Source: a virus | UHGV virus genome: UHGV-0105470 | Length of the DNA: 35,353 bases | Direction: 5' to 3' (one strand) | Shown here: positions 2,352 to 18,958 of the stretch, one piece after another | How positions within the stretch are numbered: the stretch's first letter is position 1 | Layout: the number at the start of each line of letters is the position of its first letter | Notes under the pieces: generated by a model | What the model was told of the DNA's origin: nothing | What the model saw: the letters and a program-made list of their open reading frames with translations, nothing else | Database searches by the model: none | Made by a program: the position numbers and the translations under genes

Positions 2352-2352
<1 letters not shown>

Positions 2353-2591
2353 TACATTTTTCCTGCTCTTCTAAGTTCGTTGTAAGCAATTTCCTCTTTA
2401 TACGACCTCTGAATCTCAAGAAATTGTCTCAATGATAATAAATCAGAGAATGTCATAGCAAAGAGTTGGTCAAGTGTTTCTTTACACCCTTCCATACCAT
2501 AAATAGCAAGCACAAATTTCATCTCGTCTGCTTCTTCATAGGTTGCCTCTACAGCAGCATCAGTCAGTGGTGTCTGTAGAGTATTGCCCAT
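2352..2591 (-). CDS. tail assembly chaperone, frameshift-extension ORF (T-like part of a G/GT pair)
   Basis: 79-aa ORF in the -1 frame relative to 2594..2992, directly upstream of the tape measure gene (stop/start overlap TAATG); -1 frame is open back to the slippery site. Confidence 0.55.
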
Positions 2592-2593
2592 GT

Positions 2594-2992
2594 TTACTGA
2601 GAAGTTAGGCTTTTGAAAATGCTTGCTTCGAAAAAACTTCCGAAGTTTGCCTCCAGCGCAAATGCTAAGTAATCAATAAACTCGCCGTAGTTTGCTTGGA
2701 AGTACGTATCAATATTAAGTGGGAAGTCATCAACAGTTGCCCCTTGAAATAACAAGGTAGCCATTTCTTCAAGGTTAATTTCTTCAATTCTGTCAAAACA
2801 AGCTTCAACAAGTTCTTTAAATGGAACCATCGGTGCTTCTTTCTTATCTTTATCAGTCAGACTTGATAGCATCTGTGCAAATGTTGGAACAACAATTTTA
2901 CCCAACTTCATAGACATCTTAATACCATCTCTTGCCCCAAGCAGAACGATATTTACTTTCTTACCATTAATTACTCTAGATTCTGTTTTCAT
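2594..2992 (-). CDS. tail assembly chaperone (G-like)
   Basis: 132-aa ORF between tube and tape measure genes; contains slippery heptamer T_TTT_TTC about 16 codons before its stop. Confidence 0.6.
   Translation of the reverse strand: MKTESRVINGKKVNIVLLGARDGIKMSMKLGKIVVPTFAQMLSSLTDKDKKEAPMVPFKELVEACFDRIEEINLEEMATLLFQGATVDDFPLNIDTYFQANYGEFIDYLAFALEANFGSFFEASIFKSLTSQ
2630..2636 (-). other. candidate -1 programmed ribosomal frameshift site (T_TTT_TTC)
   Basis: Plus-strand gaaaaaa at 2630-2636 reads UUUUUUC on the coding strand in X_XXY_YYZ phase; the -1 frame then runs without stops into the 79-aa ORF. Confidence 0.5.
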
Positions 2993-3064
2993 TGTGATTC
3001 CTTAATACTTTAAAAGAAACAAAAAAGGGGAAGACCTTTTAAAGTCTCCCCCTTATAGGATTTA

Positions 3065-13887: not shown

Positions 13888-14049
13888 AAGGAGAAACCAC
13901 AATGTACGTCAGAGACATACTGTATAAGGCTTCTTATAAAGTATAACTCTGTAAAAAAGCCCTGTCTAAAAATACTCTTCGGTAGCGAAAGGAAGAATAC
14001 TTATAGCAGGGCATTATTATTATTTTAATTGAGAGAGAGTAAAATAACT

Positions 14050-14125
14050 TGGAGAATCCGAAGGGACTCGAACCCTTATAGACCTGTTTTGCAGACAGGC
14101 ACATAGCCATTTCTGTCACGGATTC
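14050..14125 (-). tRNA. tRNA-Cys (GCA)
   Basis: Hand-folded cloverleaf: acceptor GAATCCG/CGGATTC, anticodon loop CTGCAAA, T-loop TTCGAGT, CCA encoded. Confidence 0.85.
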
Positions 14126-14129
14126 AAAT

Positions 14130-14222
14130 TGGAGGAAGATACCAGACTTGAACTGGTACACCGATTTCTCAGCTACTGGCAGTTTAGCAAACTGCTCCCT
14201 TACCTTTTAGGGTTAATCTTCC
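14130..14222 (-). tRNA. tRNA-Ser (GCT), class II
   Basis: 93 nt; acceptor GGAAGAT/ATCTTCC; anticodon stem GCAGT/ACTGC with loop TTGCTAA; long variable arm; T-arm ACCAG-TTCAAGT-CTGGT. Confidence 0.85.
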
Positions 14223-14223
14223 A

Positions 14224-14958
14224 TTATTTCTGTAATGCGTTCTTCATTTCTGGTGTTGCAATAGTATCAATTACACCAGTTTTACAAGCATCATCAAACC
14301 AGTCTGGTAAGATACCTGCTAAGAACCCATTGATATTCGTTTTAAGGTACTCTGCAATAAGGGCAGCTTCTTCTTCAATCATCTGCACAACTTCATCTGC
14401 ATAAGCTGTAATCTTCGAGATACCTTCATTAATCTTACTAACAGCTTGGTTAGCTAAATCAGAAACAGTATCAAGACCTTTATCAATAGCATCTTGTAAG
14501 TCACTTAATACATCATTAACACCGTCTAGTGCACTGTTAATTGTGTCAATAGCTTTTTGACCATACTCTGTAGCAACACCCATAATACCACTAAATGGTG
14601 TACAACCAACTTGCTCTCCTGCTGCACCCATAACATTGGAGTAGCCTTTTGCTACCTGCATACGTGAGGAAAACTCATCAATAGACTTTTGACCATAATC
14701 TGTCAATGTCTTAGTGGTTGATGTAGTGCTTGTCAGACTCGTTGTAAAGCTATTAAGCAGAGCTGTTGTAAGTCCAGCAGCAATGAGCTTATCCTTCATT
14801 GTAGGGTCTGTTACAGAGCTAATAGAGCTTACAAGTGATGTAGAGGCAGCCACGGTTCCACCTAGAACTGCTGCACCAGTAATAAGGGGATTAGAAAACC
14901 CTCTACCGGTTTTTAAGAGATTAAAAATCTCCTTACCTTGTTCTGTCATCTCTTTCAT
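14224..14958 (-). CDS. hypothetical protein (Ser/Thr-rich N-terminal half, helical acidic C-terminal half) embedded in tRNA array
   Basis: ORF-track start (GTG at 15021) overlaps tRNA-Phe; ATG at 14956-14958 with SD AAAGGTG is the likelier start. Confidence 0.55.
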   Translation of the reverse strand: MKEMTEQGKEIFNLLKTGRGFSNPLITGAAVLGGTVAASTSLVSSISSVTDPTMKDKLIAAGLTTALLNSFTTSLTSTTSTTKTLTDYGQKSIDEFSSRMQVAKGYSNVMGAAGEQVGCTPFSGIMGVATEYGQKAIDTINSALDGVNDVLSDLQDAIDKGLDTVSDLANQAVSKINEGISKITAYADEVVQMIEEEAALIAEYLKTNINGFLAGILPDWFDDACKTGVIDTIATPEMKNALQK

Positions 14959-14974
14959 TAAGCACCTTTGAAAT

Positions 14975-15051
14975 TGGTAGTCCAGTGGGATTTGAACCCT
15001 CTTCTCATGTTTTTCAGACACGCGCTTTAACCATATAAGCTACTTGGACTA
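14975..15051 (-). tRNA. tRNA-Phe (GAA)
   Basis: Anticodon stem CGTGT/ACATG with loop CTGAAAA; T-loop TTCAAAT; acceptor TAGTCCA/TGGACTA; exact ends ambiguous by 1 nt. Confidence 0.7.
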
Positions 15052-15056
15052 TAAAT

Positions 15057-15132
15057 TGGGGTGACCTACGGGATTTGAACCCGTATAGACCATGTTCACA
15101 GCATGGGTCATTACCTTTTATGATAAGGCCAC
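15057..15132 (-). tRNA. tRNA-His (GTG)
   Basis: D-stem TCAT/ATGA, anticodon stem CCATG/CATGG with loop CTGTGAA, C73 discriminator, CCA encoded. Confidence 0.85.
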
Positions 15133-15163
15133 ATTTAAGGACTCTCGTAAGAACCCTTAGAAG

Positions 15164-15239
15164 TGGCAGCGGCATAAGGATTTGAACCTTAATAAGACAG
15201 CTTCAGAGACTGTTGCATTGCCAGTTATGCTATACCGCT
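15164..15239 (-). tRNA. tRNA-Gln (CTG)
   Basis: D-stem GCAT/ATGC, anticodon loop CTCTGAA, T-arm TAAGG-TTCAAAT-CCTTA, G73. Confidence 0.8.
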
Positions 15240-15244
15240 AAATT

Positions 15245-15323
15245 TGGTACTCCATATCGGATTCGAACCGATACATAACACAGATTTTAAGTCTGGCCTC
15301 TCTGCCAATTGGAGTAATGGAGC
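15245..15323 (-). tRNA. tRNA-Leu (TAA)-like, atypical class-I architecture
   Basis: 79 nt; acceptor GCTCCAT/ATGGAGT; anticodon stem CCAGA/TCTGT with loop CTTAAAA; variable loop only 7 nt; A73; T-arm ATCGG-TTCGAAT-CCGAT. Confidence 0.55.
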
Positions 15324-15325
15324 AT

Positions 15326-15401
15326 TGGCGGGGGATGTTGGAATTGAACCAACTTCTTCGATTTCAAAGACCGAGGTTTTAACCTTGTAAACTAATCCCC
15401 T
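15326..15401 (-). tRNA. tRNA-Gln (TTG)
   Basis: Acceptor AGGGGAT/ATCCCCC with 1-72 mismatch, D-stem GTTT/AAAC, anticodon stem TCGGT/ATCGA with loop CTTTGAA, G73. Confidence 0.8.
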
Positions 15402-15409
15402 TTAAATCT

Positions 15410-15967
15410 TTACTTTCTTAGTGGATGAATAAAGAATGCCAACATAACTCTTTCCCTTGAGAATGCTCTTTCTTCTGGGACAACACTTTTAAGTTTCCAC
15501 CCAACATAAATTCTCCAGTAGAATTGCTTACCAAAGACTTTAATTGACGGGATAAAAGCGAATAATCCCCAAGCATTACTGTTCCACATTAGGAGATAAC
15601 CTGTCTGATTATCTTCAGGGTTAGAACTTACATTGATATTACCTTTCCACTTAGTAACATCTTTTACATCTCTTCCTAACACATGGTAAGAGAAGTTATA
15701 AGCTTTGTTTCTCCAGAGCCAACCAACTCTCTGCATATAGACACCAAGCTTACCAATCTTTCTAATCTTAGCCCATCGTTCGACATGACCTTTATCACCA
15801 TCAATTGGGTTGTCATATGTCTCCATCCATCTGAATCCAAAAGGGAGATGTCCTTTCTTCTCACTGTAGAATGGAACTACGAAAGGTGCTAAGATAACTG
15901 CTAAGATTGCTGCAAATGGCTCTAACAAAGCTAAGAAAATCCATGAAGCATACTTCAAATATCTCAT
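15410..15967 (-). CDS. hypothetical membrane protein embedded in tRNA array
   Basis: 185-aa ORF with hydrophobic N-terminus (WIFLALLEPFAAILAVILAPFVVPF); flanked by tRNA genes. Confidence 0.55.
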   Translation of the reverse strand: MRYLKYASWIFLALLEPFAAILAVILAPFVVPFYSEKKGHLPFGFRWMETYDNPIDGDKGHVERWAKIRKIGKLGVYMQRVGWLWRNKAYNFSYHVLGRDVKDVTKWKGNINVSSNPEDNQTGYLLMWNSNAWGLFAFIPSIKVFGKQFYWRIYVGWKLKSVVPEERAFSRERVMLAFFIHPLRK

Positions 15968-15986
15968 CTAAATAGCCTCTTTAAAT

Positions 15987-16062
15987 TGGCGCAGGATAAG
16001 GGATTCGAACCCCTATTAACAGCTTCGTAGACTGTTGCTCTATCCATTTGAACTAATCCTGC
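15987..16062 (-). tRNA. tRNA-Arg (ACG)
   Basis: Acceptor GCAGGAT/ATCCTGC, anticodon stem ACAGT/GCTGT with loop CTACGAA, T-loop TTCGAAT. Confidence 0.85.
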
Positions 16063-16067
16063 AAAAC

Positions 16068-16145
16068 TGGTGTTCCAAGACGGATTCGAACCGTCACTAA
16101 TACAAGGTTTGAGCTTGCATCCTCTGCCAATTGGGATACTGGAAC
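16068..16145 (-). tRNA. tRNA-Leu (CAA)-like, atypical class-I architecture
   Basis: 78 nt; acceptor GTTCCAG/TTGGAAC; anticodon stem GCAAG/CTTGT with loop CTCAAAC; 6-nt variable loop; A73; shares AATTGGCAG D-loop with 15245-15323. Confidence 0.55.
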
Positions 16146-16146
16146 A

Positions 16147-16222
16147 TGGTACTCACTAAAGGACTTGAACCTTTTTTCTTCATCTTGTAAGGGTGATGTT
16201 TTACCATATAAACTAAGCGAGT
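16147..16222 (-). tRNA. tRNA-Val (TAC)
   Basis: Acceptor ACTCGCT/AGTGAGT, D-stem GTTT/AAAC, anticodon loop CTTACAA, T-arm AAAGG-TTCAAGT-CCTTT. Confidence 0.85.
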
Positions 16223-16318
16223 ATGAAAGAGGTCTGAAGTTGTGCCGCTAACTCAACTCCGTGGAATTTGTTATGGTCTTCAGTTGACTCAAAGCGGTCT
16301 TTCACTTGACCTCTAAAT

Positions 16319-16394
16319 TGGTGCTCCCACAAGGATTCGAACCCTGATAAGTTGCTTACAAGGCAACCGTAATAGCCAATTATACGATAGGAGC
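16319..16394 (-). tRNA. tRNA-Thr (TGT)
   Basis: Acceptor GCTCCTA/TGGGAGC, anticodon stem GTTGC/GCAAC with loop CTTGTAA, T-loop TTCGAAT. Confidence 0.85.
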
Positions 16395-16401
16395 ATTAAT
16401 T

Positions 16402-16476
16402 TGGAGCATCCAGAGGGAATCGAACCCTCAACCTCAGTTTGGAAGACTGTAATTTTCCCGTTTAAACTATGGATGC
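16402..16476 (-). tRNA. tRNA-Gly (TCC)
   Basis: Acceptor GCATCCA/TGGATGC, anticodon loop CTTCCAA, T-arm GAGGG-TTCGATT-CCCTC. Confidence 0.8.
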
Positions 16477-16482
16477 ACTAAT

Positions 16483-16558
16483 TGGTGGAGTCACTGAGAA
16501 TTGAACTCAGTTCCCAAGTTTGCAAAACTCGAATTTTAACCATATAAACTATGACCCC
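16483..16558 (-). tRNA. tRNA-Ala (TGC)
   Basis: G3-U70 wobble in acceptor (Ala identity element), anticodon loop TTTGCAA, T-arm CTGAG-TTCAATT-CTCAG. Confidence 0.85.
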
Positions 16559-16564
16559 ATTGCT

Positions 16565-16640
16565 TGGTACAGGTGGAGGGAATTGAACCCATCGTCTTAC
16601 TGATTAAGAGTCAGCCGCATAACCATTTTGCTACACCTGC
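16565..16640 (-). tRNA. tRNA-Lys (CTT)
   Basis: Acceptor GCAGGTG/CACCTGT, anticodon stem GCTGA/TCAGT with loop CTCTTAA; T-stem only 3 clean bp. Confidence 0.7.
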
Positions 16641-16647
16641 ATTAATT

Positions 16648-16725
16648 TGGTAGGAGACAAGGGATTCGAACCCTCAAACACCAACTTCTAAGGATGGTAG
16701 GTTTACCAATTACCGTCAATCTCCC
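16648..16725 (-). tRNA. tRNA-Leu (TAG)-like, atypical class-I architecture
   Basis: 78 nt; acceptor GGGAGAT/GTCTCCT (two G-U); anticodon stem CCATC/GTTGG with loop CTTAGAA; 5-nt variable loop; A73. Confidence 0.5.
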
Positions 16726-16977
16726 ATTAAATCTTTTTAGAGAACTTCTAAGAACCTAAGCAACAAGGTTCCACAACAAGCTGTAATAACCTTAGAAGCC
16801 CTCTAAAAAGACCTAATTTGGTCTTTGCATAGTCTTGTTTAATCCGGTGACTAGAACCTTTGGAGAGCTTGATATATCTCTTCTCCGTGACACCTACTAG
16901 GTGCTTTATCAGTGTACGACAATACACGAGGGATAAACCGAAAATGCGAGCAAGCATGGACGGTGTAAATCTTATTA

Positions 16978-17067
16978 GGCGGTAAGTAAAGGAGTCGAAC
17001 CCTCACCGTATCTCTACAGTGGCAACAGTTTTCAAGACTGTTTGGCTGCCATTAGCCGCTACCTACC
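16978..17067 (-). tRNA. tRNA-Ser (TGA), class II
   Basis: 90 nt; acceptor GGTAGGT/ACTTACC; anticodon stem ACAGT/ACTGT with loop CTTGAAA; long variable arm; T-loop TTCGACT; 3' CCA not fully encoded. Confidence 0.8.
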
Positions 17068-17080
17068 CCTAATAAGATTT

Positions 17081-17163
17081 TGGCATGGGACGGAGGAGTT
17101 GAACCCCTTTGAAACGGTTTTGGAGGCCGTTGCTCATGCCTTAGAGTCTTAACATCGTCCCAT
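17081..17163 (-). tRNA. tRNA-Trp (CCA)-like, atypical 83 nt
   Basis: Acceptor ATGGGAC/GTCCCAT, Trp-type anticodon loop CTCCAAA, T-loop TTCAACT, G73 CCA; 5' half about 7 nt longer than canonical. Confidence 0.5.
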
Positions 17164-17305
17164 ACTGTAATTCGAAGCTTACCGTATTTTCACAACACTG
17201 TAAAGCCCCTTCTCAGATTATTTACATGTTCTGGAAAACATGAGATACAGACCACCTCCTTACACGGAGACCCGATAAGGTCGTCTAAGCAATCTGCTAA
17301 CTATT

Positions 17306-17382
17306 TGGCACACCCTACAGGATTCGAACCTGTAACTCAATGATTAGAAGTCATTTGCTCTGTCCAGTTGAACTAAGGGTGC
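17306..17382 (-). tRNA. tRNA-Arg (TCT)
   Basis: Acceptor GCACCCT/AGGGTGT, D-stem GTTC/GAGC, anticodon stem AATGA/TCATT with loop CTTCTAA. Confidence 0.85.
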
Positions 17383-17629
17383 ATTAATCTTTAAAAACTC
17401 TCTTAGAAAGCCCTTAAAGATGCCCACCTTATTAATCATACCGTGGGCTAGTACGCCAAATTCTTTGATGAGGGATTGGAAGACCTCACTGGTGTTTAGC
17501 CTATCAAGCTACTGCCAGAAAAACATTGTCGTTTGCATTTATTTTAAATTTGCAAAATAGACGCTACGCAACGAAAACTAAGGTTACTATAAAGTGGTCA
17601 CATCTAAATGTCAACAACTTTATTGAAAT

Positions 17630-17705
17630 TGGTACTGGTAGGTGGAATCGAACCACCGATGTTCCCTTATCAGGGGAGTGTTATAACCTTCTTAACTATA
17701 CCAGC
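17630..17705 (-). tRNA. tRNA-Ile (GAT)
   Basis: Acceptor GCTGGTA/TACCAGT, anticodon loop CTGATAA, T-arm GGTGG-TTCGATT-CCACC. Confidence 0.85.
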
Positions 17706-17706
17706 T

Positions 17707-17782
17707 TGGAGGTTCAGATGGGATTCGAACCCACATTCATAGGGCTTATGAGACCCTTGCATTACCTTATCTGCGACTGAAC
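17707..17782 (-). tRNA. tRNA-Met (CAT); elongator, initiator or Ile2 not distinguishable
   Basis: Acceptor GGTTCAG/CTGAACC, anticodon stem AGGGT/GCCCT with loop CTCATAA. Confidence 0.8.
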
Positions 17783-17787
17783 CATAT

Positions 17788-17863
17788 TGGTAGAAGTGGA
17801 GGGATTCGAACCCATCGCCTGTCAGATTAAAAGTCTGCCGCATCACCATTCTGCTACACTTCC
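17788..17863 (-). tRNA. tRNA-Lys (TTT)
   Basis: Acceptor GGAAGTG/CACTTCT, anticodon loop CTTTTAA; paralogous in sequence to the Lys (CTT) gene. Confidence 0.8.
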
Positions 17864-17869
17864 ATTAAA

Positions 17870-18009
17870 TTATCTTTGTAGATAAGCTACCCAGACTTGC
17901 TTAAGGTCTGTAGCGATGTGCCTTGTTGGGTTTAAATCTAGAATTTACCCTTTCACCCTTTGTGGTCGCATACTCACAGGTAAGCTTAATAACTTATCTA
18001 CAAAGATAA
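17870..18009. repeat. 16-17 bp inverted repeat pair (ttatctttgtagataag / cttatctacaaagataa) flanking about 105 bp
   Basis: Exact reverse-complement 16-mers at about 17870-17886 and 17993-18009 inside the tRNA array spacer. Confidence 0.6.
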
Positions 18010-18060
18010 TTACCAGACCGTTGTTTATCATCTTAAGTGCTACCATTACACCAACTCGAC

Positions 18061-18140
18061 ATCTGCCGAGTGAAGGAATCGAACCTTCGCCTTTTCTTTA
18101 CCGGAGAAATAGATTGTTTAAGTTTTGCTGTAAACGGTCT
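18061..18140 (-). pseudogene. tRNA remnant (intact T-arm, no pairing acceptor stem)
   Basis: T-arm GAAGG-TTCGATT-CCTTC and stem-loop TTTCT-CCGGTAA-AGAAA, but no 5' strand complementary to ACTCGGC and C at loop position 33. Confidence 0.35.
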
Positions 18141-18154
18141 TCTGTAAATTTGTT

Positions 18155-18235
18155 GAGCCAGACCAAGTTTTAAATTTTCAAAATTAAATTGGCTTTAAAT
18201 TTTAAGTAACTTGCTGAATTTGGTCTTCTGCTCCT
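18155..18235 (-). ncRNA. conserved spacer stem element in tRNA array (one of four copies)
   Basis: CCAGACC(R) ... (Y)GGTCTTCTG ends with compensatory R/Y covariation across copies at 18011-18145, 18155-18235, 18558-18625, 18714-18796. Confidence 0.4.
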
Positions 18236-18291
18236 TTAAAGAATACTCGTAAGAACCCTTTAAGGGAGGGGCTAAATAGCCCTCTCAAAAT

Positions 18292-18368
18292 TGGCGGTTA
18301 CGATGAGACTTGAACTCACATCATCTCCCGTGACAGGGGAGTATTTTATCCAGTTAAACTACATAACC
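18292..18368 (-). tRNA. tRNA-Asp (GTC)
   Basis: Acceptor GGTTATG/CGTAACC, anticodon stem CTCCC/GGGAG with loop CTGTCAC, T-loop TTCAAGT. Confidence 0.85.
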
Positions 18369-18374
18369 TTTATT

Positions 18375-18462
18375 TGGTGTGCCGTGTAGGAGTCGAACCT
18401 ACCGAGTCTCAATGACAAGGGATTTACAGTCCCCACCGCTACCATCTACGGGATAACGACAC
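18375..18462 (-). tRNA. tRNA-Tyr (GTA), class II
   Basis: 88 nt; acceptor GTGTCGT/ACGGCAC; anticodon stem GGGGA/TCCCT with loop CTGTAAA; long variable arm; T-arm GTAGG-TTCGACT-CCTAC. Confidence 0.8.
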
Positions 18463-18471
18463 ATTTAAATT

Positions 18472-18548
18472 TGGCGGTTAGTCAGGGATTCGAACCCTGT
18501 GCCATTCGCTTAACAGGCGACCGCACATACCTTATGTGCTTCCTAACC
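18472..18548 (-). tRNA. tRNA-Asn (GTT)
   Basis: D-stem GCAC/GTGC, anticodon loop CTGTTAA, T-arm CAGGG-TTCGAAT-CCCTG. Confidence 0.8.
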
Positions 18549-18628
18549 TTAATATATTGCCAGACCGTGTTTTTTTTTCTTTTATCCGCAAAAAGTAGTT
18601 TATTGCTGCATACGGTCTTCTGCAAAAT

Positions 18629-18705
18629 TGGAGGCGGGTGCAGGAGTCGAACCTGCCGATGCCATGCTAATGAGACATGTGAGACGCCCTTTCTCTATAC
18701 CCGCA
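18629..18705 (-). tRNA. tRNA with CAT anticodon (Met or Ile2), second copy
   Basis: Anticodon stem CATGT/GCATG with loop CTCATTA (pyrimidine at 37), T-arm GCAGG-TTCGACT-CCTGC, 1-72 mismatch. Confidence 0.6.
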
Positions 18706-18796
18706 ATTCTTAATGACCAGACCAAATCTCTTCTTTGTCCGATTTAGCTTCAGATGAATAAGATTAAGTTTGCTGTAATTGGTCTTCTGTCAAAAC

Positions 18797-18874
18797 TGGC
18801 GTTCCAGAAGGGATTTTAACCCTCAAATATCCACTTTGAAAGAGTGGTGACTATACCATTTTGTCTACTGGAAC
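18797..18874 (-). tRNA. tRNA-Glu (TTC)
   Basis: Acceptor GTTCCAG/CTGGAAC, anticodon stem CCACT/AGTGG with loop CTTTCAA; unusual T-loop TTAAAAT (A at position 56). Confidence 0.75.
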
Positions 18875-18881
18875 ATTAATT

Positions 18882-18958
18882 TGGTCTCTGTTGGAGGACT
18901 TGAACCTCCGGCCTTACCGCCCCAAACGGAACACTCTACCAAGCTGAGCTAAACAGAG
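18882..18958 (-). tRNA. tRNA-Pro (TGG)
   Basis: C1-G72 acceptor CTCTGTT/AACAGAG, D-stem GCTC/GAGT, anticodon loop TTTGGGG, T-arm GGAGG-TTCAAGT-CCTCC. Confidence 0.85.

Follow-up and report, generated by a model that had tools for sequence, protein, structure and literature searches.

Genes and signals at the locus

The window, that is the whole 35,353-nucleotide stretch of the virus genome UHGV-0105470 analysed here, contains between positions 2,352 and 2,992 two small overlapping reading frames of its minus strand. The 1.4 kb surrounding this site is 98–98.6% identical to many Felixounavirus genomes, from phages of E. coli, Shigella and Salmonella, and 295 phage records were matched by the 1.4-kb region. 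[quoted passage not shown] The late genes are carried by the minus strand, in the order sheath, tube, hairpin, G, −1 ORF and tape measure. The names follow those used for lambda, G being the first small ORF, T the segment read in the −1 frame and GT the fusion of the two; the G/GT type of tail assembly chaperone, with its programmed −1 frameshift, was reportedly treated by Xu, Hendrix and Duda in 2004. The features of the region are collected in Table 1.

Table 1. Position and basis of assignment of the features in the tail region of the window
Feature	Position	Strand	Basis or detail
Tail sheath, 450 aa	3527..4879	−	PHROG 205 'tail sheath', E=6e-124; Pfam DUF3383
Tail tube protein, 148 aa	3065..3511	−	Pfam PF11681 (KPP10_Orf10), PHROG 280
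Intrinsic-terminator-like hairpin, tube/G intergenic	3025..3054	−	13-bp stem, then T-rich tail (TTTTGTTTCT)
Ribosome binding site of G, AAGGA, 6 nt before ATG	2999..3003	−	anti-SD duplex −6.1 kcal/mol
G, tail assembly chaperone, zero-frame product, 132 aa	2594..2992	−	Pfam and PHROG
Internal SD-like GGAGG, candidate frameshift stimulator	2650..2654	−	13 nt upstream of the heptamer
Slippery heptamer T_TTT_TTC, X_XXY_YYZ phase	2630..2636	−	phase verified
Dual-coding overlap	2594..2629	−	frame 0: last 11 G codons and stop; frame −1: first 12 T codons
T segment, 92 codons in the −1 frame after the slip	2352..2630	−	PHROG 4963
Predicted GT fusion coding region, 213 aa after −1 slip	2352..2992	−	derived translation
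Tape measure protein, 747 aa	109..2352	−	Pfam PF20155 TMP_3, E=4e-16; PHROG 4036, 1518 bits

The presence of the sheath gene indicates that the tail is contractile, and the assignment of the tube protein is supported by the placement of its gene after that of the sheath. By analogy with gpV of lambda, the T segment presumably binds the tube protein. The contractile-tail setting, which the original prediction had singled out, is therefore present, but it is not a notable one, the same arrangement being found in the myophage P2 at TTTTTTG (PMC3091744, PMC5009743). The hairpin between the tube gene and G is a strong one and would leave the chaperone and tape measure genes less transcribed than those of the sheath and tube; in phage Meda the equivalent element is annotated as a terminator.

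G begins with the ATG at 2992 and ends with the TAA at 2596-2594. Its product matches Pfam PF21822 (Phage_TAC_15; E=1.2e-19, 71.5 bits against a gathering score of 22) over residues 9–124 of 132, and PHROG 1613 'tail assembly chaperone' over the full length (E=8e-49). The anti-SD duplex of its ribosome binding site is comparable to those of the sheath, tube and tape measure genes. The T segment takes in the ORF 2352-2591, which most records list as a separate gene, and whose 79-aa product matches PHROG 4963 'tail assembly chaperone' over the full length (E=3e-55) and has no Pfam match. Both ORFs thus belong to chaperone families and lie between the tube and tape measure genes, as in the G/GT type of gene pair, and their description as a tail assembly chaperone pair was correct. 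No solved structure related by sequence was found for the chaperone proteins, and a single-sequence AlphaFold2 prediction of the fusion gave no usable model (pLDDT 33).

The ORF coordinates and the heptamer position first proposed all proved right on the minus strand. The heptamer is made of codons 120-121 of G and the last base of codon 119, the zero frame reading GGA AGT TTT TTC GAA, so that the X_XXY_YYZ phase claimed for it within the ORF holds (AG[T TTT TTC]). Its distance from the stop had been overestimated at about 16 codons; the actual value is 12, TTC being codon 121 of 132 with 11 sense codons left. After a slip the reading would restart at C2630 (CGA AGC AAG ...) and meets no stop through the ATG at 2591 as far as the TAA at 2354-2352, whose final A also opens the tape measure ATG (TAATG, position 2352). 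A stop-free passage into the second ORF and an end on the tape measure start, here a one-base overlap, had both been foreseen, as had the fusion frame itself, the length of which is exactly 213 aa rather than about 210 (121 residues of G and 92 from the −1 frame). Across the heptamer the −1 frame has 106 codons free of stops, beginning 36 nt upstream of it, and the +1 frame only 14. The −1 ORF thus overlaps the 3' end of G. The high nucleotide conservation of the overlap is due to its coding in both frames.

The residues that precede the Met at 2591 in the −1 frame are RSKHFQKPNFSVN. The predicted diagnostic tryptic peptide of GT, HFQKPNFSVNMGNTLQTPLTDAAVEATYEEADEMK, begins upstream of that ATG, and the predicted GluC peptide across the G/T junction is ANFGSFFRSKHFQKPNFSVNMGNTLQTPLTDAAVE.

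The slippery site and its flanking elements in relatives

The relatives taken from GenBank covered Mooglevirus (74–81% amino acid identity to G), Yersinia phage P778 (51%), Pectobacterium phage Wc4 (44%), Erwinia phage phiEa21-4 (41%) and the Vequintavirinae phages CR8 and Av-05 (28–29%). All of them carry an in-phase TTTTTTC close to the 3' end of G, and behind it a −1 ORF of 96–130 codons that reaches the tape measure start or stops beside it. A scan of IMG/VR with the alignment of G proteins gave 80 loci, and clustering of the IMG/VR and GenBank sequences at 70% identity left 28 lineages with a GC content of 35–65%. Since the scan pattern included the peptide S/C-F-F, relatives without that motif were not retrievable.

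Within this set T_TTT_TTY is invariant at synonymous positions (28/28 lineages), so that the homologues keep the slippery site, with the proviso that the retrieval pattern itself contained S/C-F-F. The Ser or Cys codon that precedes the two Phe codons has T as its third base throughout (AGT, TCT or TGT, never AGC, TCC, TCA or TCG), and the first Phe codon is TTT in every lineage. Local codon usage predicts frequencies of about 0.38 for a T-ending Ser/Cys codon and about 0.48 for TTT; the joint probability would be about 1e-23 for independent lineages, a significance which is overstated by their shared ancestry. The Asn codon three positions upstream is AAC or AAT in a ratio of 15:13, and the Phe/Tyr codons vary freely; the nearby synonymous sites are therefore saturated, and the slippery positions are frozen. 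The −1 extension measures 76–116 codons in all 28 lineages, against 0–69 for the +1 extension. The conservation at synonymous positions settles, at the level of sequence comparison, that the site is more than chance. As in other G/GT-type loci, a conserved canonical heptamer thus lies inside the overlap of the two frames.

The second element is the GGAGG upstream of the heptamer, formed by the coding-strand codons CTG GAG GCA. Its anti-SD duplex (−9.3 kcal/mol) is within the top 2.3% of locus positions in the window. The Glu codon that makes up the element is GAG in 23 of the 28 lineages, the background being 0.40 overall and 0.31 when the next base is G, which is the case here; the excess corresponds to P of about 1e-8 to 1e-9 (Poisson-binomial about 2e-9), in which the independence of related lineages is overstated. 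Pairing with the 3' end of 16S rRNA falls in the top 5% of locus positions, real ribosome binding sites included, in 17/28 lineages, and in several distant lineages the element is extended to GGAGGTGA, 10 nt upstream of the heptamer. It is absent in phiEa21-4, P778, L040 and CR8, and for this reason it is not essential and could be at most a modulator of the rate.

In E. coli, an SD-like sequence located 6–17 nt before the slippery site is recognised as able to stimulate −1 frameshifting, and U_UU.U_UU.C ranks with the motifs that shift efficiently (PMC4066793). With its 13-nt gap the GGAGG falls inside this range, as in dnaX/IS3-type sites, and a role as a dnaX-style stimulator is plausible on the grounds of sequence and spacing. 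It may be suggested, though only tentatively and at somewhat less than even chances, that the signal is a two-part cassette, GAGG-N13-U_UUU_UUY, the GAGG half of which would be a conserved stimulator so far undescribed for phage tail chaperones. The most strongly conserved peptide motif of this large chaperone family is E-[AV]-N-[FY]-x-S-F-F, which holds four of the eight invariant residues of the alignment, and it might be conserved largely for encoding the RNA signal and less for the needs of the protein. No report of an SD-like element at this locus was found, and the paper dealing with the Andersonviridae frameshift (PMC12846349) does not mention one.

A stimulatory structure downstream of the heptamer, which had been proposed as something to look for, was sought by folding of the windows +1..+60, +90 and +130, by a search for duplexes between the 30 nt after the heptamer and +45..+200 at 32 loci, and by RNAalifold; nothing conserved emerged from the folding z-scores, the duplexes or the consensus. 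The +1..+60 folds of eight relatives were no better than dinucleotide shuffles (z −1.5 to +1.7), and for the +1..+130 window a z of about −3 was obtained only in the Felix/Moogle clade of these eight. No pairing was conserved family-wide at the 32 loci, and RNAalifold of 14 sequences gave neither a downstream consensus structure nor covariation or compensatory changes. A hairpin or pseudoknot 5–9 nt past the heptamer, as in dnaX/IS3-type sites, is thus not conserved here. Rfam returned nothing at the frameshift site, its two weak sub-threshold matches lying over the terminator hairpin only.

Some individual structures were also noted. A long-range pairing of +3..+17 with +108..+125 occurs in the Felixounavirus and Mooglevirus clades only and is marginal (z −1.5 to −2.2); in the window (2506-2627, minus strand) it joins GCAAGCAUUUUCA (15 nt after the heptamer) with UGAAAUUUGUGCUUGC, about 105 nt downstream. 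A hairpin at +49..+83 was rejected as too far downstream for a stimulator. The weak 6-bp hairpin at 2656-2640 (minus strand), which contains the GGAGG and was flagged by the terminator scan, was likewise set aside, as it is not conserved in other clades; terminator-like matches in the region are at chance level (5 found, 3.8 expected).

Proposed production of the fusion protein

A G/GT programmed −1 ribosomal frameshift at T_TTT_TTC is, with high confidence, the best explanation of the locus. A first alternative is transcriptional slippage, in which an additional U inserted by RNA polymerase at the U6 run would give rise to the identical 213-aa protein. The site is a homopolymeric T run of 6–8 nt, the protein would not tell the two routes apart, and U7 runs are avoided in E. 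coli genes partly on account of slippage (PMC4066793). However, 20 of the 28 lineages have a run of exactly 6 nt; seven others have one more T, and a single lineage has 8 nt. The C-capped 6-nt form is the minimum for the re-pairing of tandem tRNAs, and selection has not lengthened it. Efficient polymerase slippage usually needs runs of about 8–9 or more. A conserved SD-like element at dnaX-like spacing, moreover, makes sense only for a ribosomal mechanism. The short T run and the SD-like element together favour the ribosomal route, and the polymerase as the source of the shift is considered very improbable.

The two ORFs could also be ordinary genes, the 79-aa protein being started at the ATG at 2591, perhaps by termination and reinitiation, and the heptamer being incidental. 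This is how most GenBank records present them, with two CDSs; in this clade only 2 nt separate the ATG from the G stop, which would suit translational coupling, and in-phase heptamers are common in the window. The ATG is not preceded by an SD sequence, however: the best anti-SD duplex upstream of it has +0.6 kcal/mol, compared with −5.1 to −8.0 kcal/mol for the sheath, tube, G and tape measure genes. Moreover, Mooglevirus, P778, Wc4, phiEa21-4 and most metagenomic relatives lack this start or have it elsewhere, yet the domain which it would open is conserved. Of 29 sequences, five have no Met at all in the −1-frame segment, and in most of the others the first Met comes 29–75 residues in, within the conserved part. 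The T segment is homologous family-wide, with the motifs CKET...SYKEE in the Felix-like clade and W-S-L-D-D...L-D-M elsewhere. From a domain that is conserved without a conserved start it is concluded that the expression of T needs the frameshift. The −1 ORF thus lacks initiation signals of its own, as in G/GT-type pairs. Separate genes would not need a heptamer invariant at synonymous positions in 28/28 lineages, nor a −1 frame which is always open back to that heptamer, and two independent genes are regarded as still less probable than a slipping polymerase. Some free T may possibly arise by reinitiation, which would leave the conserved heptamer unexplained.

The frequency of heptamers in the window can be stated more closely, since 48 of the X_XXY_YYZ type occur in phase in its 53 ORFs; in this AT-rich genome the heptamer alone is weak evidence. 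Only the one in G precedes a long −1 ORF, of 92 codons and extending 242 nt past the zero-frame stop. The runner-up, T_TTT_TTA in the ORF 13934-14161 (minus strand) with a −1 extension of 41 codons, is spurious, that ORF overlapping tRNA-Cys and tRNA-Ser. A chance heptamer beside an unrelated small ORF, with no fusion made, might be thought of in view of these 48 occurrences, but it is hardly credible, given the unique −1 extension of the G heptamer and the chaperone families of both ORFs, and is effectively refuted by the comparative data.

The window also carries a cluster of 26 tRNA genes (14050-18958, minus strand). It includes a phage tRNA-Phe(GAA) at 14975-15050, which reads both codons of the slippery site.

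The reading of the pair as a G/GT-type −1 frameshift, put forward in the original prediction, was thus borne out by the gene order, the protein families, the conservation of the heptamer and the want of a ribosome binding site or conserved start in the second ORF. Under programmed ribosomal frameshifting most ribosomes would read G to its stop and yield the 132-aa protein, and a minority would slip with UUU-UUC (codons 120-121) in the P and A sites. Both tRNA-Phe(GAA) would slide back by one base on U_UUU_UUC and re-pair with UUU-UUU, and translation of 92 codons in the −1 frame would then complete the 213-aa GT. The slip is probably aided by pairing of the GGAGG with 16S rRNA, as in dnaX, and RNA structure downstream is apparently not involved. 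By analogy with G/GT of lambda and E/E+E' of P2, G and the G part of GT would coat the tape measure protein and the T part would recruit the tube protein; neither G nor GT would be expected in the virion.

Relation to known systems and to public annotation

The frameshift is already known, having been annotated and published for close relatives, and its site is real and strongly conserved. Three of the 60 relatives' records listed contain two CDSs over G, the second as a two-piece join, namely those of Mushroom (RefSeq NC_041923), Meda and Maleficent. For Mushroom, Meda and Maleficent/Michonne, the fusions derived by a slip at T_TTT_TTC agree at every residue with the deposited join-CDS proteins, which are AJF40599.1/YP_009600435.1 for Salmonella phage Mushroom, AXY86324.1 for Meda, and a third protein common to AKU44019.1, ALA06885.1, AYR00813.1 and YP_009177317.1 for the Citrobacter phages Michonne/Maleficent. 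The fusion of Moogle (YP_009145710.1, 212 aa) belongs to the same protein cluster. The exact 213-aa fusion of the window was absent from the protein collection in an exact-sequence look-up, most records having two separate CDSs annotated; it is one residue apart from that of Mushroom (S5 instead of F5). With these Felix O1-like phages the window shares orthologous genes, the same heptamer and the same slip codon, and there is no substantive difference.

[quoted passage not shown] In December 2025 a paper dealing with Pseudomonas phage Adele described a −1 frameshift conserved in 159 Vandenendeviridae genomes, in which GTTTTT is invariant, and reported the same motif at this locus in 231 Andersonviridae genomes (PMC12846349). 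In the literature on Felix O1-like phages no experimental detection of the fusion was found, annotations and reports all being predictive, nor were proteomic or genetic data on G/GT in this lineage; in the cryo-EM paper on Bas63 the word 'chaperone' occurs in the reference list only and chaperones are not discussed, as would fit, though not prove, products that are absent from the virion.

G-T frameshifting is widely conserved in long-tailed phages, the myophage P2 included (PMC5009743), and P2 and its relatives frameshift at TTTTTTG without a hairpin (PMC3091744). The locus resembles E/E+E' of P2 in that, in a myophage, a small chaperone gene separates the tube gene from that of the tape measure, with a −1 slip on a T-rich heptamer near the 3' end and no downstream hairpin; it differs in that the P2 products are smaller, 91 and 142 aa, and the P2 heptamer ends in G and not in C. 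A Pfam scan at E up to 0.1, which returned PF21822 and one chance match only, gave no homology to gpE of P2, so that the mechanism is P2-like and the protein is not a member of the P2 gpE family. No SD-like element is known upstream of the P2 site. With G/GT of lambda the gene position, a −1 slip near the end of G and a minor fusion product are shared, and also the presumed roles, with G attaching to the tape measure and T to the subunit of the tail tube (PMC5009743). Lambda, in contrast, is a siphophage, its G_GGA_AAG is decoded by tRNA-Lys, and no sequence similarity is detectable. The likeness to dnaX and IS3 lies in the canonical heptamer with an internal SD-like stimulator about 10–14 nt upstream, here a candidate at 13 nt, whereas the downstream hairpin or pseudoknot also used in those systems has no conserved counterpart.

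The labels in the public records are inconsistent. The proteins of this locus are called 'head closure protein' in phage VpaE1_ev108 and the SUT_S phages, and in Sf13 the protein at this locus is labelled 'putative tape measure protein'. The records of phiEa21-4 and Wc4 have no annotation for the −1 part, which in CR8 and Av-05 stands as a separate hypothetical ORF. A copy of the 132-aa chaperone is filed under Staphylococcus hyicus (WP_252560994.1, on a 47.6-kb contig), most likely owing to contamination of the assembly by a Felix O1-like phage.

The analysis has little discovery value, confirming a textbook case of recoding in phages that have been well sampled, and the only item that may be new, a modest refinement, is the conserved upstream SD-like element as a candidate stimulator. 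The annotation stands to gain more directly. Most records of Felix O1-like phages, Kolesnikvirus and Vequintavirinae present two genes, leave the second part unannotated or use the name 'head closure protein', and the conserved cassette offers a simple rule by which the fusion can be annotated. The SD-like element, if it is functional, would make a small addition to what is known of how chaperone frameshifts are tuned without downstream structures.
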